A DNA stretch of 64,000 bases. Origin: an uncultured Candidatus Saccharibacteria bacterium. GTDB lineage: Bacteria > Patescibacteriota > Minisyncoccia > Phycocordibacterales > UBA2100. Positions 3,729-63,987 of this stretch are shown here, one piece after another. The notes beneath the pieces were generated by a model. That model was not told the DNA's origin, searched no databases, and saw nothing but the letters and a program-made list of their open reading frames with translations. The stretch covers positions 105,372-169,371 of the forward strand of contig CAZELA010000001.1 in assembly GCA_964512835.1 (NCBI GenBank). The letters run 5' to 3'. Position numbers and translations under genes: made by a program. The first letter of the stretch is position 1; each line of letters opens with the position of its first letter.

Positions 3729-4715
3729 ATGCTGAATCCCGACATGCACATACGTGATGACTGGGCCGCCGTAACCGAAAAGGGTGCCACCCGCGACGGC
3801 TTCGGGAAGGGGGTCGTTGAGGCGGGGCGCGCCGATGAGCGCGTTGTTGTGTTATCCGCAGACCTCGCGGAATCCACGCGGGCTGAATGGTTTCAAAAAG
3901 AATTTCCGAAGCGGTTCATAGAGATCGGCGTTGCAGAGCAGAATCTCGCGACCGTTGCGGCAGGAATGGCGAATTACGGAAAGATCCCGTTCTTTACTTC
4001 GTATGCCGCATTTTCTCCCGGACGTAACTGGGAACAAATCCGCACCACGATCGCACTCAATGATGTGCATGCGGTTGTATGCGGCATGCATGCAGGCATT
4101 TCCGTCGGTCCCGATGGTGCAACCCACCAGATGCTCGAAGATATAGCGATTATGCGAGCGCTACCGAATATGATTGTGATCTCCGCGTGTGACGTCGAAG
4201 AGGCACGAAAGGCAACCATTGCGGCTGCTACGGTAGGAAAGCCTGTCTATATGCGTTTCGGTCGCGAGAAAACGCCCGCGATCACGACCGCAGAAACGCC
4301 GTTTGTGATCGGGAAAGCAAACGTGCTCATATCGCACGATGCACCGAAGGTTGCACTGTTTGCGACCGGTCCGCTCGTGCATGCCGCACTTGTTGCCGCG
4401 TCCGCGCTCGAACAGGAGGGTATTCCGGCCAGCGTGACCAATGTTCATACGATTAAGCCGCTTGATGTGGAGACCATTGCTCGCGAGGCGTCGCGTGCCG
4501 GTGCTGCCGTCACTATAGAAGAGCATCAGACGACCGGAGGAATGGGTAGTGCCATAGCCGAAGCGCTCGCACGCACGACACCGGTTCCGATGGAATTCAT
4601 CGGCGTGCAGGACAAGTTCGGACAGTCCGGTACACCGGACGAGCTGTACACCCATTACAATATGGACGCTGCGCACATTATCGAAGCTGCAAAGAAAGTT
4701 ATTTCACGAATATGA
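3729..4715 (+). CDS. transketolase, C-terminal subunit (pyrimidine-binding and C-terminal domains)
   Basis: FIEIGVAEQNLATVAAGMA, PDGATHQMLEDIAIMRALPNM, FIGVQDKFGQSGT motifs. Confidence 0.9.
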   Translation: MLNPDMHIRDDWAAVTEKGATRDGFGKGVVEAGRADERVVVLSADLAESTRAEWFQKEFPKRFIEIGVAEQNLATVAAGMANYGKIPFFTSYAAFSPGRNWEQIRTTIALNDVHAVVCGMHAGISVGPDGATHQMLEDIAIMRALPNMIVISACDVEEARKATIAAATVGKPVYMRFGREKTPAITTAETPFVIGKANVLISHDAPKVALFATGPLVHAALVAASALEQEGIPASVTNVHTIKPLDVETIAREASRAGAAVTIEEHQTTGGMGSAIAEALARTTPVPMEFIGVQDKFGQSGTPDELYTHYNMDAAHIIEAAKKVISRI

Positions 4716-5737
4716 ATCTGATCCGTTCAGTCTGCTCAGTACTTTTGATCATGCTTGTTGTGCTGCCGCTCACCGCCGGGGCGCAAACATCCGACGAGAT
4801 CATCGCGGATCTGTTACGCACACTCGACGGTACGACGCCGGTCCGAGTTGTTTCTACATCGACGGCTTCCACCACAGCGCCGAAACCCGCGCCGAAGCCG
4901 GTCTCGTACTCAACAGCGGTTCCTACACCGACAAATCAGCCGGTCCTCGGTCCGATGTTTGTATTCGGTATCGACGGCAATGCTCCCCAGGTAGACCCGC
5001 AGGTATCAGGATTGAAGGGGACTGTAGAGCTTCTCATGGTGCAGCTGGAGGCGCTCAGGGCTCCCGCTGCCCCCGCAACGACCACAGCAACGACGACCGC
5101 AACCACGACACCCGTGAAAAAAATGTTCAGTCGCGACCTCACGATCGGTTCCCGCGGCGAAGACGTGTCCCGTTTGCAGACACTCCTTATCGCTCAGGGA
5201 TTTCTTTTTGGTGAGGCGACAGGCTACTACGGCATTCTCACAAAAACAGCGGTGATAGCGTTCCAGACGGAGCATTCGCTGCCGCCGGTCGGGAATGTGG
5301 GCCCGCGTACACGAGTCGTGTTAAATGAGATGCCGACTGAGCCGGGACAAGAATCCGCGCAGCTCATCATCGGTCCGCCTGCGCGCCCGTTCATTGCGTC
5401 GTCCACCAGTGCGATATTGTCCGCATCGTCGACTGCAACATCTACGACCGGTATGGCCTCAACGTCGGTTTCGTTCGATCCGTTCTATCCGCCGGTGTCA
5501 GTTTTTATGTCGGTGCTTCCTCCTGAGGCGCCTGTTGGCGGGTCGTCCGCCGTTACATGGATCTCACAGAACGCGACCAGTTGTCAGGCAAGCGACGGAT
5601 GGGACGGACCCAAGGCAACACTCGGCGCTGCACGCATTGAGCCGCTGCAGTTCACATTGAATCTCGTGCTTACGTGCACCGGTCCGGGCGGAATCGCCAG
5701 CACGACCGCTGTAATTGTGGTTGGTGGGGAGCAATAA
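4712..5737 (+). CDS. secreted Pro/Thr-rich protein with a peptidoglycan-binding domain (PG_binding_1-like)
   Basis: Signal peptide; ATTTATTTATTTP low-complexity segment; LTIGSRGEDVSRLQTLL..GYYGILTKTAVIAFQ matches the PG-binding repeat; ATGA overlap with the upstream gene. Confidence 0.6.
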   Translation: MNLIRSVCSVLLIMLVVLPLTAGAQTSDEIIADLLRTLDGTTPVRVVSTSTASTTAPKPAPKPVSYSTAVPTPTNQPVLGPMFVFGIDGNAPQVDPQVSGLKGTVELLMVQLEALRAPAAPATTTATTTATTTPVKKMFSRDLTIGSRGEDVSRLQTLLIAQGFLFGEATGYYGILTKTAVIAFQTEHSLPPVGNVGPRTRVVLNEMPTEPGQESAQLIIGPPARPFIASSTSAILSASSTATSTTGMASTSVSFDPFYPPVSVFMSVLPPEAPVGGSSAVTWISQNATSCQASDGWDGPKATLGAARIEPLQFTLNLVLTCTGPGGIASTTAVIVVGGEQ

Positions 5738-5756: not shown

Positions 5757-5786
5757 TAAAATACGGCTCTACAGAGCCGTATTTTA
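5757..5786 (+). terminator. rho-independent terminator (AAAATACGGCTCT-aca-GAGCCGTATTTT)
   Basis: Perfect 12-bp inverted repeat whose T-run is built into the descending arm, immediately after the stop at 5737. Confidence 0.7.
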
Positions 5787-5809
5787 CTATGGACACAGCG
5801 TTGTATAAG

Positions 5810-5818
5810 TGGTATAAT
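5810..5818 (+). promoter_or_regulatory. extended -10 promoter TGgTATAAT
   Basis: TGGTATAAT lies 50 nt upstream of the 5869 ATG, which has a GGGGGT RBS. Confidence 0.4.
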
Positions 5819-5868: not shown

Positions 5869-6552
5869 ATGCAGAAATGGATTCAAAATACCTGGCTCGT
5901 CATCTTGGCGATGTGGGAACCATTCCACCGGCTGCTCGTGTCGTTCAAGTGGCCGATCGCATTTGCGGTCGCCGCTATCGGATCGGTCGCGGCGCTCGCG
6001 ATCGTTGGATTCATGTGGTGGGAGGATGCCTTCAAGCACAAGAAGACCGTCGACGAAAAGCGTATCGAGACCGTGCAGAAGCTGAGGGATGATGAGCGGA
6101 CGTATCTCGCGACCGCCATCATTCGCGATGCGATGCTGACATCGGAACCGATCCGCGTACAGGAAGGTGTCGGTTGGGCTGTCTTGAACTATCGCAAGAA
6201 GTTCAACGTAGATATCCCGACCATCGTGAAAAATTCACTCACGATGCTGCCGTTGAATCACAAAGGCGGCGGACCGTTACTCCCGACGAGCAGTCGCTTC
6301 GTGATGAAAGAGGCGAGCGACGGGCAAATCACCGAAGCGTACGCCTTGGCTGACCGCCTCGTCGCGATGCAGGCCGCTGTCCTTTCGGATCCGGCACTTT
6401 CGTGCGCAACACAATATGTGCGCAAGAAGCGGATCACCTGGTCGCCCTCGAAGGAAATCGTCGAGAAATTCGAGTCATCCGAATACAAGGAGGTGCCGAA
6501 GAGCAACGCTCCGAACCCGGGTGACGGCAGGTTCTTCTGCTACGCAAAGTGA
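5869..6552 (+). CDS. hypothetical membrane protein
   Basis: RBS gggggt; two N-terminal TM helices; no recognisable domain. Confidence 0.55.
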   Translation: MQKWIQNTWLVILAMWEPFHRLLVSFKWPIAFAVAAIGSVAALAIVGFMWWEDAFKHKKTVDEKRIETVQKLRDDERTYLATAIIRDAMLTSEPIRVQEGVGWAVLNYRKKFNVDIPTIVKNSLTMLPLNHKGGGPLLPTSSRFVMKEASDGQITEAYALADRLVAMQAAVLSDPALSCATQYVRKKRITWSPSKEIVEKFESSEYKEVPKSNAPNPGDGRFFCYAK

Positions 6553-8506: not shown

Positions 8507-9091
8507 TCAGACGCTGGTCCGCATCGGGGTAACGCATCCTTTTTTGTCGCGATACGCAGTATGCGACCCGAATGTGCCGACGGGCACGAGCGCGCGGTCG
8601 AACCATTTCTGACTCTTTTCGCTGACACCCTTGTTATCGGTCCGCTTGTAGTACCGAACGCACTGCCAACCTTTCGGCATGACGAGCGAGTTGTCCGGAT
8701 CGTTCACGATAGAACGTGCGATCTGAAGAGCGGTTTCCCACTTTTCTTTTTCGCCGCGCTTGGTCGCGATCTTGTGATCGAGTACCCAGCTAAACGCACG
8801 ATCCTGCGCGATGGTTGCGATGACCGACTTCGGCCATTGCTTGTCCTGATCGGCCGCACGCGCGAGCGTGATGAGCGCGATCTTTCGCTGACTGTCGACG
8901 GACTCACCACGACCTTCGTGGTAAATATTTTCGCCGAGCACATACTCCAGCTTTTCGCGCTTACTCGTCATCGTGAAGCTGAAACACAGCAGCGCGATAC
9001 AGAGTGAGCCGGTGAAGGCAGAGGACGCCTTGCTGACCGAAACACGACGGGCGAGGGAAGGGATAGCCTTCAGATATCCAAGGATACGCAT
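8507..9091 (-). CDS. cell-wall hydrolase, SleB/CwlJ (Hydrolase_2) family, membrane-anchored
   Basis: N-terminal TM; HEGRGES...KIALITLAR motif resembles the EARGE..AVA.VVLNR signature; GGAGAAG RBS. Confidence 0.5.
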   Translation of the reverse strand: MRILGYLKAIPSLARRVSVSKASSAFTGSLCIALLCFSFTMTSKREKLEYVLGENIYHEGRGESVDSQRKIALITLARAADQDKQWPKSVIATIAQDRAFSWVLDHKIATKRGEKEKWETALQIARSIVNDPDNSLVMPKGWQCVRYYKRTDNKGVSEKSQKWFDRALVPVGTFGSHTAYRDKKGCVTPMRTSV

Positions 9092-9210
9092 CAGTCTTCT
9101 CCGTACTGGTTACAAATCGGAGGACACTATTGTCCGACTGCAATAGTACCACAAACTGTGGATAAGTCAATACGCGAATTATGAAGCAGGAGAGCCGTGT
9201 TTTGGTCGTT

Positions 9211-9241: not shown

Positions 9242-10102
9242 ATGAAGACACTCAGAGAGACAGTCTCGGAAGCCCGAGAAAAAGGCATAGCAATCGGTCA
9301 CTTTAATATTTCGGATTCAAATCAGATCAAAGCGATAGCTGATGCGGCGCACGAAACCGGCATGCCGGTCATCATCGGATTATCCGAAGGCGAGCGCGAT
9401 TACTTTCCGCTTGCGCACGCACGCGCGCTCGTGACCGAATATCAGAAGGCCGGACTCCCCTTGTATCTGAATGCTGATCACACCTACTCTATAGACAAAG
9501 TCCGTGCCGCAATCGATGCGGGTGTGGATTCGGTGGTCGTCGACGGGGCCAAACTCCCCTTCGACCAGAATGTGCAATTTGCCAAGGATTCAGTCGCCTA
9601 TGCCCGCGCAAGCGGACGCGACGTCATCATCGAAGGTGAACTGGGCTACATCGGTTCATCGAGCAAGGTATTGGATGCGTTGCCGGAAGGCGCACAGGTT
9701 ACCGAGGAGCTCATGACCAAGGTGGACGAGGCAAAGGCGTTTATGGAACAGACGGGCGCTGACATGCTCGCGCCGGCTGTCGGTAACGTGCATGGGATGG
9801 TCAAAGGCGGTGACCCGAAGCTCTCGATCAGTCGTATCGCGGAAATTTCCGCGGCGGTCGGGAAGCCGCTCGTTTTGCACGGCGGATCGGGGAACTCGAA
9901 TGAGGAATTCATCAACAGTGTAAAAAACGGTATTGCGATAATTCATATCAACACTGAGCTGCGTTTGGCATACCGCGAGGGTCTGGTGCAGTCGCTCGCA
10001 CATAATCCCGACGAAACAACGCCGTATAAGTTTGTTTCGCCGGCGGTTTCCCACATGAAAGACTTTCTGGTACAAAAGATCCGGCTGTTTGCAGGTCAAT
10101 AA
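9242..10102 (+). CDS. fba: fructose-bisphosphate aldolase, class II
   Basis: GIAIGHFN, LNADH, DSVVVDG, GELGYIG, HGGSG motifs of class II FBA/TBP aldolases. Confidence 0.9.
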   Translation: MKTLRETVSEAREKGIAIGHFNISDSNQIKAIADAAHETGMPVIIGLSEGERDYFPLAHARALVTEYQKAGLPLYLNADHTYSIDKVRAAIDAGVDSVVVDGAKLPFDQNVQFAKDSVAYARASGRDVIIEGELGYIGSSSKVLDALPEGAQVTEELMTKVDEAKAFMEQTGADMLAPAVGNVHGMVKGGDPKLSISRIAEISAAVGKPLVLHGGSGNSNEEFINSVKNGIAIIHINTELRLAYREGLVQSLAHNPDETTPYKFVSPAVSHMKDFLVQKIRLFAGQ

Positions 10103-37128: not shown

Positions 37129-37188
37129 AGCGGTTAATCAACCGTCCCGCCAATTCCGGTCGGGTCCATGCCAAACAGGAGTTATCCC

Positions 37189-38109
37189 ATGGCAATCGAA
37201 GTCATCGCACGCGGCAAGATCCACGCCGGCAAGAAAAGCGGCAACAACTTCCGCTTTCAGCCCGGCAGGACGCAGGGTATCGGCAAAACCGCCAATCAGA
37301 CCCTGTTCCGCTCGCTGACGTACGTTCGCGGCACGATCGCCGGGACCGACGACGGCTCGTTCAAGTACGGTGCGGTGATGGGACCCAACCAGGTGGTGTC
37401 GGGATCGGGTAATCACGCGATCCTCGATCCCAACTCCAAGGTCATCCCGGTCGTTGCGAGCAACGACACGCAGCTCGTGCCGATCCGGAAGTTCTACACG
37501 CCGGAGGAGCTCAAGAAGCCGCATCACCAGCGCGTCGCCAAGACGTTCATCGACTGGGCATCGTTCCAGTCGCAGCAGAACGGCGAGGCCAGCCTCGTGA
37601 AGTATCTCGGCAACAACACGGTGAACGTCGAGATCTGGACCGGCCTGTTCGAGAAGATGACCGAGGAAATGTACCAGCTCATCTTCGGGCTGGAGCATGG
37701 ATCGATCAACTACTCGGGCAGCAAGACTGTCGCCAGGGCCAAGAAGAAGTTGGTCGTCGACGAAACTGCGCCGGAAGGCGAGGCGATCGTCGAGGCGAAG
37801 GCGAAGTTCTCGGCCAACCTCGTGCTCGAGGATCACGCGACCGTCGTCAACAACAACGACGTCCCGCTCTGGTCCGTGCGTACGTGGGAGATCGAGTACT
37901 CGCCCGGCGACAGCGCGATCGTGCTGGTGCGTCACTTCGACGCGTTCTACGTCGTCGAAGTGAAGAAGGGCGAAGAGCTCGTCATCACCAAGTACACCGA
38001 CAAGGACGCCGCGGTCTGGAAGCGTCGCTTCCTCAAGGACTGGTCGGCGGCGCTCGCGGCGGAACGCACGAAGGCGGAAATCGACGCCAAGCTCGCTTCG
38101 GCAGCCTGA
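37189..38109 (+). CDS. hypothetical protein, 306 aa, no signal peptide, very high GC3 / expression-optimised codons
   Basis: AGGAG RBS; strong promoter and terminator; the stop is embedded in CTGATCTTTCAACTG. Confidence 0.65.
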   Translation: MAIEVIARGKIHAGKKSGNNFRFQPGRTQGIGKTANQTLFRSLTYVRGTIAGTDDGSFKYGAVMGPNQVVSGSGNHAILDPNSKVIPVVASNDTQLVPIRKFYTPEELKKPHHQRVAKTFIDWASFQSQQNGEASLVKYLGNNTVNVEIWTGLFEKMTEEMYQLIFGLEHGSINYSGSKTVARAKKKLVVDETAPEGEAIVEAKAKFSANLVLEDHATVVNNNDVPLWSVRTWEIEYSPGDSAIVLVRHFDAFYVVEVKKGEELVITKYTDKDAAVWKRRFLKDWSAALAAERTKAEIDAKLASAA

Positions 38110-40325: not shown

Positions 40326-40538
40326 ATGGACGAAAACGACATCAAGGAAATCGTACAGAAATTCGAAGCGACCGTACCGCCGGGGGATGATGAGGCGGCG
40401 CGCGTGTTTTTTGAAGAAGTGTTCCCGAATTTCTCGCAGGATTTGAAAGACGCGTTTTTGCGCGAGGCACTCGTGAGCGCCATCGAGCAATCCGCCGAAG
40501 AACTCATGGCGGGGCGAAAGGGTGATTCCGAGGCTTGA
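40326..40538 (+). CDS. small acidic hypothetical protein (70 aa), translationally coupled
   Basis: ATG lies 2 nt after the upstream TAA; its stop TGA lies inside the downstream TTGACA. Confidence 0.45.
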   Translation: MDENDIKEIVQKFEATVPPGDDEAARVFFEEVFPNFSQDLKDAFLREALVSAIEQSAEELMAGRKGDSEA

Positions 40539-40626
40539 CAGAGCCGTATTTTTATGAATTAATATTGCCGGCATCCGATCGGAGGATCGGTATAGTCGTA
40601 GTACGAACAAACCTGCGGAGGGCACC

Positions 40627-41508
40627 ATGGCGGACATCGCCGCGGCGCTTGCCGCTTTCACGCTCGCTCTATGGTCGCTCGGTATCGTGCTCATGAGCAC
40701 GGTGTATCAAGAGACCGGTGTACTGCTTGCGGCACTCGGGTTTCTGACCGGAGTGATGCACGCGATACTGCAATGGCGATCGGCGAACTCGGAATCGCAA
40801 CTTCAACCTGAACGTACAGAAAGGAATGAAACCATGACTGCACCCGAAGCTTCGGCTGCACAGCCGGTCCACATTCACCCGATGGTGGGGAAGGAGAGTC
40901 ACTTCGTCGCGTGGGTCGGATTCTTTTCGACCCTGTTGGTGAGCTTGCTCATCTTCTCGATCCTGACCGGCAACTGGATCCCGCCGACGTTCGCCATCGG
41001 TGACGCGTCGGTCGGCCCGGAGACGTACATCCCGATCATGGCGATGATCGTCTATCACTACCAGGTCAAGGTCTCGCTCGAACGTCCGGACACGCTCTTC
41101 TACGCGTGGCTGGATCTCATCGGCTCCGTGCTTCCGTTCGCGATCGCATTCATCGCGATCATGTCGTGGTTCCCGGCGGTCCGTTGGATCTTGGAGACCA
41201 TGCGGCTCTGGATCACGCCGTACACCACGCTGACACTGGTGACCGCCGGCACGTATCTCATCCTCTCGGCATGGGACGTGTTCTGGAATCACTGGCGTCG
41301 GTCGCGTGTGTTTGGGCATGGCGGCGGCGCGAGCAATGCGTTCATCGATGATGTCATCATCGGGCAGGGGGTCTCGCGCAAGCGCGTCATGCCGCTCGAG
41401 ATCATCTGGGAACCGCAGCACTTCGTGCAGCAGCCCGACGGCACGCTTCGTCGCGTGCAGCCCGAGCTGATCGAGCAGCAGACCGGTCCGGCGCCGGAGA
41501 CCCACTAA
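40627..41508 (+). CDS. hypothetical polytopic membrane protein (high GC3)
   Basis: GGAGGG RBS; 6-7 TM; flanked by the split halves of the 5757 hairpin. Confidence 0.6.
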   Translation: MADIAAALAAFTLALWSLGIVLMSTVYQETGVLLAALGFLTGVMHAILQWRSANSESQLQPERTERNETMTAPEASAAQPVHIHPMVGKESHFVAWVGFFSTLLVSLLIFSILTGNWIPPTFAIGDASVGPETYIPIMAMIVYHYQVKVSLERPDTLFYAWLDLIGSVLPFAIAFIAIMSWFPAVRWILETMRLWITPYTTLTLVTAGTYLILSAWDVFWNHWRRSRVFGHGGGASNAFIDDVIIGQGVSRKRVMPLEIIWEPQHFVQQPDGTLRRVQPELIEQQTGPAPETH

Positions 41509-41536
41509 ATACGGCTCTACGACGAGCTCTTTCGAC

Positions 41537-41572
41537 CCGGCGGCACAGCGATGTGCCGCCGGTTTTCTATTT
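41537..41572 (+). terminator. rho-independent terminator of the hairpin-TTTTCTAT type, abutting a TTGACAAA promoter
   Basis: CCGGCGGCACA-gcga-TGTGCCGCCGG followed by TTTTCTATTTGACAAAAG. Confidence 0.75.
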
Positions 41573-41599
41573 GACAAAAGTGATTTTATATGATACTTT
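41571..41599 (+). promoter_or_regulatory. promoter TTGACAAA-N17-TACTTT
   Basis: TTGACAaaagtgattttatatgaTACTTT. Confidence 0.45.
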
Positions 41600-41659
41600 A
41601 TCTGCGGTCTCTTTCCGTACAGGAGAGGGTTTTACAGTCACACAAACATGGGAGGCGTA

Positions 41660-42301
41660 ATGGCCGCTCCGGTATCACCGGGATCGCGATGGCGTATCCC
41701 GATCGTCACACCGCAGCCGTATGTCGTGCCACCTCGGCCCGTGCATGCAGCTGCTCCGGTAGTTTCCAACCAACAGCCTTCCTCGCACGAAGATGCGCGT
41801 ATGCGCGGCTTCGAGGACGGCAGGGCATATCAACGAAATGGAGGTCAGAATATGTCTGCGAAGGCCGACGACCACGGACATCACGGCAGCGGTCCGCCCG
41901 AGGGGGTAAAAAAGGCCCTCTGGTGGATCGGGGTGATCCTGATTGCGTTCCTGTTGTTCAATTGGTTCACGACCGCCTGGGATCGGTTCACCGATCCTGT
42001 CGGCTTCCGCGCCAATGAACAGCAGCGCGTGATCGACGATCTGAAGGATCGTCTGCGCGCGTACCAAAGCGGCGATGTCGGTCCGAGCCCTCGCGGTGGC
42101 ACGGGCGGCAACATCTCGCGGCTCGGAAACAACAATGCGCCTCGTCAACCGACGGCACAGGAGATCTGGGATCGTACGTTCCATCGCACGACCAGTACCT
42201 GCGCCCCGTGCGATCAGACCAGGGGATGGAATTACATCCAGGACCCCGAAACCTGTCAGTGCGATGCGGCTCGGTGGCGGCCTGGTCCGCCCCCGCGCTA
42301 A
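41660..42301 (+). CDS. single-pass membrane protein with a C-terminal Cys4 domain (CAPCDQTRGWNYIQDPETCQCD), paralog A
   Basis: GGGAGG RBS before ATG 41660; central TM helix; the last 34 aa are identical to 42482..42979. Confidence 0.6.
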   Translation: MAAPVSPGSRWRIPIVTPQPYVVPPRPVHAAAPVVSNQQPSSHEDARMRGFEDGRAYQRNGGQNMSAKADDHGHHGSGPPEGVKKALWWIGVILIAFLLFNWFTTAWDRFTDPVGFRANEQQRVIDDLKDRLRAYQSGDVGPSPRGGTGGNISRLGNNNAPRQPTAQEIWDRTFHRTTSTCAPCDQTRGWNYIQDPETCQCDAARWRPGPPPR

Positions 42302-42342
42302 GTGATCTTTCGTCCTCAAATCGAAACAATTGCGGGGACATG

Positions 42343-42375
42343 CAGACGGCTAGCGATAGCCGTCTGTTTCTTTTG
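42343..42375 (+). terminator. rho-independent terminator
   Basis: CAGACGGCTA-gcga-TAGCCGTCTG followed by TTTCTTTTG. Confidence 0.7.
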
Positions 42376-42381
42376 TAGCCC

Positions 42382-42409
42382 TTGACAAAAAGGGTAAATA
42401 TGGTAATAT
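42382..42409 (+). promoter_or_regulatory. promoter TTGACAAA-N16-TGGTAATAT
   Basis: TTGACAaaaagggtaaataTGGTAATAT. Confidence 0.55.
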
Positions 42410-42481: not shown

Positions 42482-42979
42482 ATGAACAGGCTTATCGTTG
42501 CTCTCTGTGCGATTGCGTTCTTCGCATTCGCATCGCTCGGCACGGCGTCCGCGCAATACGGAGCCGGTGTCGGCACCGGCGGTACCATGGCTCTTCGCCA
42601 GGGCGTTCCGCATGCCCAGACTGTCTACGAGGACCAATGTCGGCGCATCGGTGCATATAACCATCCGATGTGCATGACCGGTCAGCGTCGTGGTCACGGC
42701 CATGGTGTTCAGGGCCGTCGCGTGATCCCGGTTTTCGCGACCGGCGCACACTACGACCGTCGCGTGGCAGCTGGGCACTACGGCCGCACAGCCGTGGTTC
42801 GCCCCGTGGCACCCCCGCCGCCCCCGCCTTCGGCACAGCAGATCTACTCTGCAGTGCCGCACAAGACGGTCAGCGTCTGCGCCCCGTGCGATCAGACCAG
42901 GGGATGGAATTACATCCAGGACCCCGAAACCTGTCAGTGCGATGCGGCTCGGTGGCGGCCTGGTCCGCCCCCGCGCTAA
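42482..42979 (+). CDS. secreted protein with a C-terminal Cys4 domain, paralog B
   Basis: AAGAGGAG RBS; signal peptide; His/Arg/Gly-rich middle; Pro7 linker; identical C-terminal 34 aa. Confidence 0.65.
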   Translation: MNRLIVALCAIAFFAFASLGTASAQYGAGVGTGGTMALRQGVPHAQTVYEDQCRRIGAYNHPMCMTGQRRGHGHGVQGRRVIPVFATGAHYDRRVAAGHYGRTAVVRPVAPPPPPPSAQQIYSAVPHKTVSVCAPCDQTRGWNYIQDPETCQCDAARWRPGPPPR

Positions 42980-43019
42980 GTGATCTTTCGTCCTCAAATC
43001 GAAACAATTGCGGGGACAT

Positions 43020-43052
43020 GCAGACGGCTAGCGATAGCCGTCTGTTTCTTTT
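43020..43052 (+). terminator. rho-independent terminator (duplicate of 42343)
   Basis: Same hairpin within repeat copy 2. Confidence 0.7.
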
Positions 43053-43059
43053 GTAGCCC

Positions 43060-43087
43060 TTGACAAAAGGGGTAAATATGTTAATAT
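43060..43087 (+). promoter_or_regulatory. promoter TTGACAAA-N16-TGTTAATAT (duplicate)
   Basis: Within repeat copy 2. Confidence 0.55.
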
Positions 43088-54932: not shown

Positions 54933-55625
54933 GTGCGTATGGATTTCGCACCCTTTGAAGCGAGAATCGGCTACACATTTCGCCGGAAAGAACTGCTTGA
55001 GCAGGCGTTTACGCACCGCTCCTATCTCAACGAGCATCGCGGCAGCGGTCGCGAACATAACGAACGACTCGAATTTTTGGGCGACGCTATTTTGGAACTG
55101 GTCGTTACTGAATTTTTGTTCAATAAATATCCGGACAAACCGGAAGGGGAGCTGACTGCGTTTCGAGCGGCGCTCGTAAATACGGTATCCATTTCCGACG
55201 CGGCACAGTCGCTTGGGATGAATGATTTTTTGCTTCTCAGTAAAGGAGAATCGCGCGATACCGGGCGTGCACGACAGATTATTCTTGCCAATGCGTTTGA
55301 GGCGGTGATCGGTGCGATCCATCTCGATGCAGGTTATCCAGCCTCGCGCGACTTTATTTCGAAACAACTGTTCCATAAAGCCGATGCTGTGGTTGAGCAA
55401 AAGTTGTGGCAGGACGCAAAAAGCAAACTGCAGGAGCTTTCACAAGAAAAGCTGGGCATTACACCCATCTACGAGGTTGTAAGTCAGACCGGGCCTGATC
55501 ACAACAAAGTGTTCGTAACGGGTGTGCGTCTCGGTGCTGAGCGCGTTGCTATCGGCGAAGGACGTTCCAAGCAGGAGAGTGAGCAGGCAGCGGCGGAAAA
55601 GGCGATTGCTGCAAAGGGGTGGTAG
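54933..55625 (+). CDS. rnc: ribonuclease III
   Basis: ERLEFLGDA signature, catalytic domain plus a C-terminal dsRBD. Confidence 0.9.
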   Translation: MRMDFAPFEARIGYTFRRKELLEQAFTHRSYLNEHRGSGREHNERLEFLGDAILELVVTEFLFNKYPDKPEGELTAFRAALVNTVSISDAAQSLGMNDFLLLSKGESRDTGRARQIILANAFEAVIGAIHLDAGYPASRDFISKQLFHKADAVVEQKLWQDAKSKLQELSQEKLGITPIYEVVSQTGPDHNKVFVTGVRLGAERVAIGEGRSKQESEQAAAEKAIAAKGW

Positions 55626-62797: not shown

Positions 62798-63481
62798 ATG
62801 GCCTCAGCCAAAACTCAAAAACCTACCCATTTTCATATCGTCACGTTGTTTGCCGAGAGCATCGAGCCGTATTTGAACAGCTCTATTTTGGGACGCGCGG
62901 TGAAGGACAAGAAGATCAAGGTCTCGTACTACGATCCCAAGGACGTTACCCGTGACCGCTACGGTCGCGTGGACCGCCGTCCGTACGGCGGGGGCCCGGG
63001 CATGGTGCTTGAACCGGATGCAATGCTCCGCGCAGTAGAGAAGGCGCAGAAAAAGTGTGCCAAGGGCAAGAAGCCCGAGATTGTGTTCTTTGCGACCGAC
63101 GGGGAACAGTTCGATGAACCAATGGCGCAGAAATTGTCGAAGAAAAAAGACATTATTTTTATCTGCGGTCGCTACGAAGGAATTGACGCACGTGTGCAGA
63201 AAATTCTGAAAGCAAAAAAGGTGACTGTGGGCCCGTATGTGCTCACCGGCGGCGAATTGCCGGCGGCGACCATGATCGATGCAATCGCGCGATTCATTCC
63301 CGGCGTGCTCGGCAAGGCCGAATCGCTTGAGCGCTCGCGAGTATCTGCGCCCGAGGTCTACACCCGACCCGAGGTATTGGAGTGGAAGAAAAAGAAATAC
63401 AAAGTTCCGTCTGTGCTTCTGAGCGGTAATCACGCCGAAATGGATAAGTGGAAGCAGGGAAAACAGCCCGGTGACAAATGA
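62798..63481 (+). CDS. trmD: tRNA (guanine37-N1)-methyltransferase
   Basis: FHIVTLFAE..., GGGPGMV, ICGRYEGIDARV SPOUT-knot motifs; AAGGTGG RBS. Confidence 0.9.
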   Translation: MASAKTQKPTHFHIVTLFAESIEPYLNSSILGRAVKDKKIKVSYYDPKDVTRDRYGRVDRRPYGGGPGMVLEPDAMLRAVEKAQKKCAKGKKPEIVFFATDGEQFDEPMAQKLSKKKDIIFICGRYEGIDARVQKILKAKKVTVGPYVLTGGELPAATMIDAIARFIPGVLGKAESLERSRVSAPEVYTRPEVLEWKKKKYKVPSVLLSGNHAEMDKWKQGKQPGDK

Positions 63482-63856: not shown

Positions 63857-63958
63857 TGAGAATGCGACAGACCAGCCACGTGCTGTACAGTCTCTAGGCG
63901 GATACAGGGTCCAAAATCGCCCCAAAAGCCCCCAATATGGGCTTCATAGAGCCTTAAT

Positions 63959-63987
63959 TTGACAGGTCACCGGAATCCGACTATATT
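63959..63987 (+). promoter_or_regulatory. promoter TTGACA-17-TATATT at the window edge
   Basis: TTGACAggtcaccggaatccgacTATATT; the target gene lies beyond the window. Confidence 0.45.

Follow-up and report, generated by a model that had tools for sequence, protein, structure and literature searches.

Why does gene 40627..41508 stand between two short sequences that match the two sides of a hairpin found intact at 5758..5785 of the same 64,000-nucleotide stretch of DNA (the window) from a tiny, Saccharibacteria-like member of the Patescibacteria? A sequence-only reading had taken the flanks for the two halves of a terminator hairpin, left by a circular element that had been opened or integrated within the hairpin loop or, alternatively, by a terminator module that had been split and reused. 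The features around the two hairpin loci are as follows.

5758..5785, + strand: intact hairpin of the family (H), AAAATACGGCTC-TACA-GAGCCGTATTTT, 3' of the PG_binding gene 4712..5737
5790..5818, + strand: promoter-like TGGACA-17-TATAAT with a TG extension, which would drive gene 5869..6552
40532..40552, + strand: left site (L), GGCTT-GACA-GAGCC with a GTATTTT tail, a complete small hairpin
40555..40565, + strand: AT-rich −10-like block TGAATTAATAT, preceded by TG, of the putative promoter of gene 40627
40569..40598, + strand: 5'-leader stem-loop with the core CCGATC-GGAG-GATCGG at 40575..40590
40627..41508, + strand: flanked gene, encoding a predicted multi-pass membrane protein of 293 aa assigned to no Pfam family
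41507..41528, + strand: right site (R), AAATAC followed by GGCTC-TACGAC-GAGCT, probably a local 5-bp hairpin, just past the stop codon
41537..41569, + strand: strong intrinsic terminator CCGGCGGCACAGCGATGTGCCGCCGG followed by TTTTCTA, likely the real 3' end of the transcript
41571..41576, + strand: −35 TTGACA of the promoter of the next gene, in the conserved module of R, terminator and promoter, invariant in 6 lineages

The left match, the 15-mer ACAGAGCCGTATTTT of H, was found at 40538..40552, exactly as had been described. The right match, the 14-mer AAATACGGCTCTAC, corresponds to the 5' side of H and forms the first 14 nt of R; it had been placed at 41510..41523 and lies at 41507..41520, its first two A's being the last two bases of the TAA stop codon (41506-41508). 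Joining of 41520 to 40538 does rebuild the hairpin with an AC overlap. Practically no weight is given to coincidence, that is, to unrelated AT-rich promoter and terminator words matching by luck. No 14- or 15-mer of H recurred in any of 300 second-order Markov simulations of the window (0/300), the word AGAGCCGTATTT with at most one mismatch was present 6 times against 0.21 expected, and the family core GGCT-N6-AGCC 5 times against 0.63 expected. The earlier estimate that each match alone is near the chance level was therefore too cautious, and its judgement that the joint configuration is not due to chance agrees both with these counts and with the occurrence of the motifs at the same positions in relatives; statistics and conservation together refute coincidence. 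One copy of the word, GAGCCGTATTT at 62864 in a coding region, does look like a chance match, and apart from it the word is restricted to intergenic DNA.

L is a complete local hairpin and R probably another, neither being a true half. L extends beyond the half assigned to it, with 19 of 21 positions identical between GGCTtgACAGAGCCGTATTTT and GGCTctACAGAGCCGTATTTT of H. As a whole hairpin it reads GGCTTGACAGAGCC, folds alone as GGCUU-GACA-GAGCC (−6.8 kcal/mol) and carries a conserved TTGACA in its loop (40535..40540), within which the TGA stop codon of the 70-aa ORF (40536..40538) is also found. L was almost unchanged in the related loci L008, L009, L010, L033 and L072, and consensus folding showed every pair kept or wobble-compatible in 4 lineages; in L035, the most distant relative, the stem is swapped for GCCAT/ATGGC around TTGACA. 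A block ATG(A/T)ATT(A/T)ATAT lies 14-25 nt past TTGACA in all relatives and, although it is absent from the consensus-scan list, its conservation argues for the promoter of gene 40627 that had been proposed at this site. All pairs of the 5'-leader stem-loop at 40569..40598 were kept in 4 lineages by consensus folding, and L035 keeps the structure with the sequence changed to CCGGTC/GACTGG.

R probably forms a local hairpin of 5 bp, for which covariation is limited. The predicted fold GGCUC-UACGAC-GAGCU has an energy of −6.1 kcal/mol, its core (A)CGGCT was present in all 7 lineages, and its closing pair covaries (C-G / U-A / A-U), the 3' arm having diverged to GAGCT relative to H. In the alignment 76.7% of the cells were paired, as compared with 13-60% when the partner was slid; the hairpin score was reached by 43 of 500 shuffles, and in L008 and L011 a 2-nt longer loop and one mismatch each have to be accepted. 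No promoter adjoins R on either strand, so that a promoter-linked constraint does not explain it. On direct reading, a stop-codon read-through frame across R was rejected because the frame is not conserved, as was an ECF-sigma −10 (CGTAT) or antisense promoter, which had no conserved partner hexamer. Both L and R resemble intrinsic terminators only weakly, with stems of 5 bp. The terminator at 41537 has an energy of −24.5 kcal/mol and shows two compensatory pair changes in relatives; in L072 a different stem occupies its position.

The surroundings of the gene were then compared among relatives. In seven related lineages the order 710-aa gene, 70-aa gene, flanked gene and strong terminator recurred, and the two motifs kept their positions. 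Nine loci contain the neighbouring 710-aa gene or a homologue of gene 40627 (L008-L011, L033-L035, L072); all of them carry a gene at this position, and an empty site was found in none. The flanks were the same in all of these except L035, which keeps the position and the hairpin with the −35 in its loop around a gene without detectable homology; L034 is identical to L033. Two observations by which the circle proposal might have fallen at once, half-sequences that are frequent words of the window and unrelated flanks in relatives, were thus not made. The constancy of the locus nevertheless speaks against it.

Integration of an ancient circle, or active excision, at the hairpin by an attC-like, Xer-exploiting or IS200/IS605-like route, with L and R as the junctions, is distinctly improbable. 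An integron recombination site is an imperfect hairpin, a linear cassette is bounded by parts of two such sites, and the circle restores one; the split-site geometry described for this locus, with the order 3' half, gene, 5' half and a 2-nt overlap, is the same. The 28-bp palindrome in the format of a recombinase core site, the exchange of the flanked gene between lineages and the inversion in place of the asymmetric hairpin (L017 versus L027) would also fit. Against this, the gene has the same flanks in every relative found, there is no empty site, and Pfam scans of about 67 ORFs of the window revealed no integrase, no HUH transposase and no recombinase of the tyrosine or serine type. The hairpins are whole, L still matching H (GGCT) to the left of the supposed breakpoint. 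No sharp junction was found, since L is 19/21 identical across it and R has the 3' arm GAGCT; the only direct repeat common to L and R is GGCTnnAC, and the identity between close relatives declines gradually across the modules, not sharply in the loop. Neither a GC-skew switch at the hairpin nor matches in viral contigs were found. Unlike in an integron, no attI or cassette array was found, the gene is fixed in place in all relatives, and the hairpin is devoid of attC-like extrahelical bases and R/L boxes. A phage or mobile-element origin was rejected on the same search of viral contigs, which found no copy of the motif, and on the absence of mobile-element genes from the window. H as a dif site was likewise rejected, the skew having the same sign on both sides in the window, L017, L024, L029 and L030.

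The gene itself is hypervariable. Its product is 26-59% identical across the relatives that keep synteny and motifs (including L008-L011, L033 and L072), and two deeply divergent allele classes can be distinguished, class A in the window and L008-L011 and class B in L033 and L072. The comparison of L010 with L033 displayed a mosaic. Over 1160 nt upstream the two were 97.5-100% identical per 40-nt window, with one mismatch in each of four windows; identity then fell to 72-93% over the 70-aa gene and L, the drop beginning about 180 nt before L, close to where the 70-aa gene starts. Across the flanked ORF the sequences were unalignable (35% amino-acid identity), and from about 35 nt before the stop codon, through R, the terminator, the promoter and the leader, they were again 93-97% identical, up to the first 25 nt of the next gene, after which they diverged again. 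L072 has the closest 710-aa gene (75%) yet a 26% allele of the flanked gene. Next door, some strains have and others lack a 678-bp unit bounded by 222-nt repeats, in which a terminator and a promoter are included. The flanked gene behaves like a cassette, by allele replacement between conserved flanking modules. The intuition of a movable gene behind the circle proposal was sound in this respect, and its mechanism, strand exchange in the loop, is not supported; the alternative, reuse of a terminator module, comes close to the evidence.

The complementarity of L and R could also act in RNA. In a read-through transcript their pairing would give a 12-bp long-range helix around the gene, for processing or stability, as with the stems flanking rRNA genes and the 5'-3' fold-back of hok mRNA. 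For the window the duplex energy is −18.2 kcal/mol, and the helix belongs to the minimum-energy fold of the 1023-nt RNA (pair probability 0.996), and RNase III is encoded at 54933..55625. The helix was, however, predicted in the window only and not in L008, L009, L010 or L033; L009 and L033 have a weaker duplex of about −10 kcal/mol and L072 has lost most of it, the C-to-A change in R and the G-to-A change in L breaking pairs without compensation. With transcription starting at the L promoter, the 3' arm of L would be absent from the mRNA, and H and the site at 9191 (see below) would be left unexplained. Such a helix is considered highly improbable.

H has the properties of an intrinsic terminator in that its stem-loop (14-bp stem, −21.2 kcal/mol) is followed by a UAUUUU tail and lies 20 nt past the stop codon of 4712..5737. 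Its sequence is kept in the relatives L012, L013, L015-L019 and L027, and the surrounding intergenic DNA is not; in L013 the identity is 27/27, and the downstream protein is only 53-75% identical in the relatives that keep H. Intrinsic terminators are expected to conserve structure rather than sequence, and those after 5869..6552 and at 41537 covary, the former showing compensatory substitutions in the same genomes that keep the sequence of H. H does not behave in this way: no compensatory change was detected among 7 lineages, the sequence itself being kept. The promoter-like site at 5790 begins 11 nt past the GAGCC of the H core, and within it TAGACA and TGGTATAAT are unchanged in 7 lineages with a variable spacer. 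At the H locus of L027 only a 55-nt island, the hairpin and the promoter, is common with the window; the genes on either side are unalignable, and the downstream one has no detectable homology to that of the window. On direct reading H is a 28-bp palindrome whose two 11-nt arms enclose a centre of 6 nt, as in the core site of a recombinase, and between L017 and L027 the asymmetric hairpin has changed its orientation at an unchanged position. The genes beside H and L are not paralogues, the 227-aa and 293-aa proteins being unrelated, and Pfam gave no support for the 227-aa protein as a SleB-like cell-wall hydrolase.

Three further sites in the window belong to the same family or carry its word.

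9191..9202, + strand: single motif copy AGAGCCGTGTTT, 14 nt before a TTGACA
42348..42361, + strand: terminator apex GGCTAGCGATAGCC with the full stem GCAGACGGCTAGCGATAGCCGTCTGT and the core ACGGCT-N6-AGCCGT; an identical copy is at 43026..43039
63940..63964, + strand: family member GGCTTCATAGAGCC, followed after 5 nt by TTGACA (63959..63964), a 17-nt spacer and TATATT

All five copies of GGCT-N6-AGCC are at gene boundaries and fold as stem-loops or form the apex of one; four of them count as independent copies in the 64 kb. With 14-21 nt in common, the copies offer little length for homologous recombination between loci to act on. The copy at 9191 is between the divergent genes 8507..9091 (− strand, cell-wall hydrolase) and 9242..10102 (+ strand, aldolase), and L017 has ACAGAGCCGTCTTTT at the equivalent of this site. 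The distance from the hairpin to the −35 is 11 nt for H and 5 nt for the 63940 member; spacings of 10-11 nt were found in L021, L052, L064 and the second L015 site, and 10 nt in L051, with the −35 hexamers of these loci picked by eye from the sequences.

The 19-mer AATACGGCTCTAYAGAGCC gave 13 matches in species-representative genomes, 11 of the 13 in Patescibacteria, with at most one exact copy per representative genome; the canonical hairpin occurs about once per 64 kb. Many of the instances in other Patescibacteria consist of the 14-bp core and one flank, and with a 5-bp stem and no U tract they would be poor terminators. A metagenome scan gave 36 matches, in which real intergenic hairpins are mixed with probable chance or coding ones, several being inside ORFs. 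Many matches outside this lineage may be independent hairpins, chance matches in the limited sequence space of terminators. Rfam scans at the gathering threshold of the window and 12 loci gave only tRNA and rRNA, no published report of the core sequence was found, and the literature on LexA motifs of Patescibacteria and on terminators of Saccharibacteria yielded nothing relevant.

Conservation of the hairpin sequence itself would be accounted for if AGAGCCGTATTT(T), a 12-13-nt word, were the half-site of a DNA-binding regulator. H would then serve as a complete palindromic operator, placed about 54 nt before gene 5869 starts, with L as an operator over the −35 and spacer of gene 40627 and with R and the 9191 copy as auxiliary half-sites, possibly for looping. 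H is kept without compensatory changes, unlike the adjacent terminator, and the word is enriched and, but for the single coding copy, intergenic. The copy at 9191 and its L017 counterpart are in a region of divergent promoters, which needs no terminator, many Patescibacteria instances are poor terminators, and the spacing of 10-11 nt to the −35 (read by eye) recurs. Several neighbours are cell-wall genes, namely Hydrolase_2 at 8507..9091, PG_binding at 4712..5737 and M23/LysM in L028, with a weak SLT match in L021 and L030; this link, however, comprises few cases and weak matches. No regulator gene was found in the window or beside the motif, and the position relative to the promoter is inconsistent (−54, overlapping the −35, or past a stop codon). 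Moreover, the variation of the L and R stems obeys the rules of RNA pairing, with G-U tolerated and the closing pair covarying, which points to a structure at the transcript level. An operator is therefore regarded as unlikely, although it could coexist with the explanation in terms of boundary modules given below.

The explanation that we favour, as a probable one, is that L and R are old separate hairpins in conserved terminator-promoter modules around a hypervariable gene. From the sequences we infer the terminator and promoter function of these modules and the common descent of H, L and R. The canonical form of the family would be AAAATACGGCTC-TAYA-GAGCCGTATTTT, and L and R would be two separate members at gene boundaries. 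L appears to have been retooled, its loop serving as the −35 TTGACA of the promoter of gene 40627 and its 3' arm with the T tract as the spacer, and would probably be left as a weak, leaky terminator for the upstream 710-aa and 70-aa genes. R keeps the canonical 5' side, and termination has probably passed to the strong hairpin at 41537. If L and R are adjacent copies that have each diverged on one side, L would match the 3' side and R the 5' side of H without any hairpin having been cut. The ORF between the modules is swapped among lineages as a cassette, and homologous recombination in the modules or beyond them is the most likely means.

Terminator and promoter function alone is not sufficient for three hairpins that keep up to 15 identical bases. 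Ordinary terminators drift freely in the same genomes, and either gene conversion or a putative factor that reads the sequence, be it a protein or an RNA partner, has to be assumed in addition. It is conceivable, though rather improbable, that the 28-bp hairpin (core GGCTCTAYAGAGCC) is the site of a putative sequence-specific Patescibacteria factor that marks the borders of envelope-gene cassettes. The factor could then be a recombinase directed to hairpins or a protein that binds DNA or RNA; L and R would function as cassette borders, and a gene-swapping system resembling chromosomal integrons or PeSLs would exist in ultra-small bacteria.

PeSLs (promoter-early stem-loops) of T4-type phages are composite terminator/promoter cassettes that bring about the shuffling of modules and are able to form mini-circles (Arbiol et al. 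2010, PMC2839356; Comeau et al. 2014, PMC4122927). The boundary modules resemble them in that, in a hyperplastic region, gene boundaries are occupied by a short conserved stem-loop next to a sigma-70-like promoter, a combination found, with predicted promoters, at H, L and 63940 and, past the intervening terminator, at R. Small ORFs of unknown function between modules are swapped among close relatives in both, as indicated here by the L010/L033 mosaic, the incongruence of L072, L027 and the 678-bp variant, and in both a repeat-bounded unit is gained or lost between strains. The present locus differs in being on a Patescibacteria chromosome and not in a phage, with few copies in 64 kb; the hairpin precedes the promoter or contains the −35 in its loop, and the short copies have diverged, L and R each matching the canonical hairpin on one side only. 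The hairpin sequence is here conserved well beyond one species. A module of the PeSL kind would be expected in many near-identical copies per genome, as homology for exchange between different loci, and to give rise to mini-circles.

With ordinary intrinsic terminators, among them bidirectional ones that have an A tract and a U tract, H has in common a stem of 12-14 bp, a 4-nt loop, A/T tracts, the position past a stop codon and an energy similar to that of the other terminators of the window. It differs from them in that its sequence is fixed, whereas ordinary ones change compensatorily; L and R have stems of only 5 bp, and some members of the family occur where no terminator is needed. Short conserved words, often in inverted pairs that double as terminators, are also known as the DNA uptake sequences of Neisseria and Haemophilus and as REP elements. 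The likeness is that of a sequence-conserved inverted repeat at gene ends, found across contexts within one clade; an element of this high-copy type was rejected because the copies here are far too few, and no RAYT-type transposase is encoded in the window.

For the reading of such loci, a striking split-site geometry can come about when two members of one family lie close together and have diverged. Patescibacteria, which live attached to other cells, rely on the proteins of their envelope, and to our knowledge almost nothing has been established about how their envelope genes are regulated or diversified. At the present locus, hypervariable ORFs for membrane or secreted proteins are found between near-constant short intergenic modules even when the ORFs are replaced, and across lineages the hairpin is preserved in its sequence and not in its fold alone. 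Should the modules provide transferable homology or be recognised by proteins, this would account for the reshuffling of the surface repertoire in a genome of 0.5-1 Mb, and the genetic tools for Patescibacteria now in development would gain a handle in the form of a promoter, a terminator or an insertion site.

The window, with 56% G+C, belongs to a bacterial chromosome. It encodes DnaE, GyrB, ThrRS, SMC, RNase III, ribosomal proteins, a sortase, a split transketolase and numerous ORFs assigned to no family; its nearest relatives among public genomes carry the labels Saccharibacteria or Paceibacterota, i.e., Patescibacteria. The features compared were:

5758..5785, intact hairpin (H), AAAATACGGCTC-TACA-GAGCCGTATTTT
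40532..40552, left site (L)
40627..41508, plus strand, flanked gene, encoding a predicted multi-pass membrane protein of 293 aa
41507..41528, right site (R)

The 15-mer ACAGAGCCGTATTTT of H was found again at 40538..40552, where the sequence-only reading had placed it, and the 14-mer AAATACGGCTCTAC at 41507..41520, starting within the TAA stop codon of the flanked gene (its earlier coordinates were 3 nt too high). No 14- or 15-mer of H turned up in any of 300 Markov-simulated windows, and AGAGCCGTATTT with at most one mismatch occurred six times in the window against 0.21 expected; the matches flanking the gene are thus real and not due to chance. The sequence GAGCCGTATTT is also present at 62864-62874 within a coding region, the plus-strand reading of which (...IEPYL...) seems to belong to a TrmD-like protein, the strand assignment being provisional since a simple ORF caller gave a minus-strand ORF; this copy is probably fortuitous.

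L was identical to H at 19 of 21 positions (GGCTtgACAGAGCCGTATTTT), and the two substitutions make its loop TTGACA. RNA folding showed that L alone can form GGCUU-GACA-GAGCC, and R GGCUC-UACGAC-GAGCU. In seven lineages the closing pair of R was C-G, U-A or A-U, with other pairs changing to G-U, and 76.7% of the cells were paired, as compared with 13-60% when the partner was slid. The pairing score of R was matched in 43 of 500 shuffles, and the evidence for this hairpin is therefore moderate. L and R are not halves of one hairpin. A conserved RNA helix between L and R was rejected, as it was predicted in the window only.

Homologs of the 293-aa product were few. In every locus recovered for gene order (L008-L011, L033/L034 and L072; 26-59% identity) a 710-aa gene, a 70-aa gene, the flanked gene, a strong terminator and a TTGACA promoter followed one another. 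L was nearly invariant in the relatives (GGCTTGACAGAG[C/T]C[G/A]TAT) and lies within a 65-nt conserved block, together with a -10-like, AT-rich element and a stem-loop in the 5' leader, next to unconserved coding DNA. This stem-loop (40569-40598; CCGATC-GGAG-GATCGG plus outer pairs), which comes directly after the inferred promoter of gene 40627, was strongly conserved in all relatives, had no match in Rfam and may serve as a 5' mRNA stabiliser. The most distant relative (L035) keeps it with altered sequence, and again has TTGACA in a hairpin loop, but with the stem GCCAT/ATGGC. At R, (A)CGGCT was kept in all lineages and the intact form (ATACGGCTCTA) only in the nearer ones, decaying with distance. 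An identical stretch of 18 nt, AGCTGAATACGGCTCTAT, including a TGA stop codon, follows two unrelated genes, clpP in L029 (1655-1676) and the flanked-gene homolog in L008 (about 2000-2020). The conserved cluster of 313-aa, 710-aa, 70-aa and variable genes lies downstream of the sortase gene; the 313-aa ORF heading it (37168-38109) has no Pfam family and a third-position G+C of 0.87 versus about 0.65 in its neighbours, and it may encode a surface-structure protein that is expressed at high levels.

Since gene order and motifs are kept in the relatives, the position of the flanked gene is occupied in every locus recovered (no empty site), and no recombinase or transposase is encoded by the ORFs of the 64-kb window, the opening of a circle in the hairpin loop, which was proposed from the sequence alone, is unsupported as a recent event; the sequence observation itself holds, with another interpretation. 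An ancient site-specific event is an unlikely source of the arrangement of L and R, their geometry being the one observation in its favour. Given two copies that had each drifted on one side, the probability of this arrangement is roughly one in four, so that it is no longer remarkable.

H has a PG_binding gene on one side and a 227-aa ORF on the other, and precedes TGGACA-17-TATAAT by 11 nt. In relatives with a 227-aa homolog of 53-75% identity H was identical or almost so, and the intergenic DNA flanking it, the promoter spacer and the leader all varied. The terminator after the 227-aa gene differed in its stem from one of these genomes to the next, with compensation, and that at 41537 also showed compensatory changes in relatives. 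That H stays nearly unchanged while these terminators change by compensation shows a constraint on its sequence as well as its structure. A dif site (chromosome dimer resolution) was rejected for H, because no GC-skew switch occurs there. In its asymmetric version, AAAATACGGCTCTATAGAGCCTCTTTTT, the hairpin is reversed at the same syntenic position between L017 (9889-9918) and L027 (6660-6689), the two matching at 29/30 positions and only as reverse complements; the difference is a micro-inversion, possibly the result of exchange involving the outer A and T tracts.

The motif GGCT-N6-AGCC occurs five times in the window versus 0.63 expected, each copy being a stem-loop or stem-loop apex at a gene boundary:

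5765, GGCT-N6-AGCC
40532, GGCT-N6-AGCC
42348, GGCT-N6-AGCC
43026, GGCT-N6-AGCC
63940, GGCT-N6-AGCC, followed after 5 nt by TTGACA-17-TATATT

A single AGAGCCGTGTTT at 9191, in a divergent promoter region, has a counterpart in L017. L015 and L016 each have another copy of the core, with a TTGACT 11 nt after it. The 19-mer AATACGGCTCTAYAGAGCC matched 13 species-representative genomes, once per genome, 11 of them Patescibacteria (36-55% G+C). Its contexts in these 11 varied: after clpP, rpsA or an exonuclease gene, overlapping a sigma-factor stop codon, or within divergent regions. In three related genomes, L020 (492-510), L025 and L049, an ECF-type sigma-factor gene has its last codons and stop (CTA TAG) covered by the core, 89 nt upstream of a gene for an RRM RNA-binding protein. 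A metagenome scan gave 36 further loci; several of these matches fall in ORFs and may be due to chance. The 43 sequence contexts pooled from all sequences collected showed non-random flanks, AAA 5' and RTATTTT 3' of the motif. Viral contigs contained no matches, and no paper on the hairpin core sequence was found in the literature.

Identity was traced along loci L010 and L033, which derive from different samples.

Identity between L010 and L033 along the locus
710-aa gene, 1160 nt: 97.5-100% per 40-nt window, four windows having one mismatch
70-aa gene and L module: 72-93%
ORF between L and R: no alignment possible; products 35% identical
R, terminator, promoter and leader, with about 35 nt ahead of the stop and the next gene's first 25 nt: 93-97%
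Remainder of the next gene: divergent again, about 60%

This pattern indicates a within-species mosaic, the variable ORFs being interspersed with conserved intergenic modules. The flanked ORF has two deeply divergent allele classes, A in the window and L008-L011 and B in L033 and L072. L072 combines the most similar 710-aa gene (75%) with a class B allele at 26%, an incongruence that requires recombination, and the flanked gene behaves as a cassette after all. At the H locus, L027 and the window share only a 55-nt island (hairpin core and promoter) between non-alignable regions, and the L027 ORF downstream has no detectable homology to that of the window. A 222-nt direct repeat (42188-42409 and 42866-43087; 97% identical, spacing 678 nt) spans the coding sequence for the Cys-rich C-termini of two small secreted proteins, together with a terminator (identical in both copies) and a TTGACA promoter. 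The 678-bp unit bounded by these repeats, immediately downstream of R, occurs in the window and in L006 but not in L002 or L003, which is copy-number variation via recombination between terminator-promoter modules. The two secreted proteins (41648-42301 and 42482-42979) have a common C-terminal Cys-rich motif, CAPCDQTRGWNYIQDPETCQCDAARW, whose matches to the VEGF heparin-binding domain are weak and fall below threshold.

The best-supported explanation is that hypervariable ORFs for envelope proteins are enclosed by conserved terminator-promoter modules at gene boundaries, which hold members of a single hairpin family, and that these ORFs undergo replacement by recombination, presumably homologous. 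L and R would be neighbouring members of this family, each keeping one side of the canonical sequence; H and L would act in termination, and L would have promoter activity. The most attractive addition to this module picture would be a DNA-binding regulator with AGAGCCGTATTT as its half-site; no such protein was found, and the stems of L and R vary in accordance with RNA pairing rules. A module-and-variable-ORF architecture has been described for the promoter-early stem-loops (PeSLs) in the hyperplastic regions of T4-type phages (PMC2839356, PMC4122927). On this explanation the window has the same architecture, but in a bacterial chromosome.
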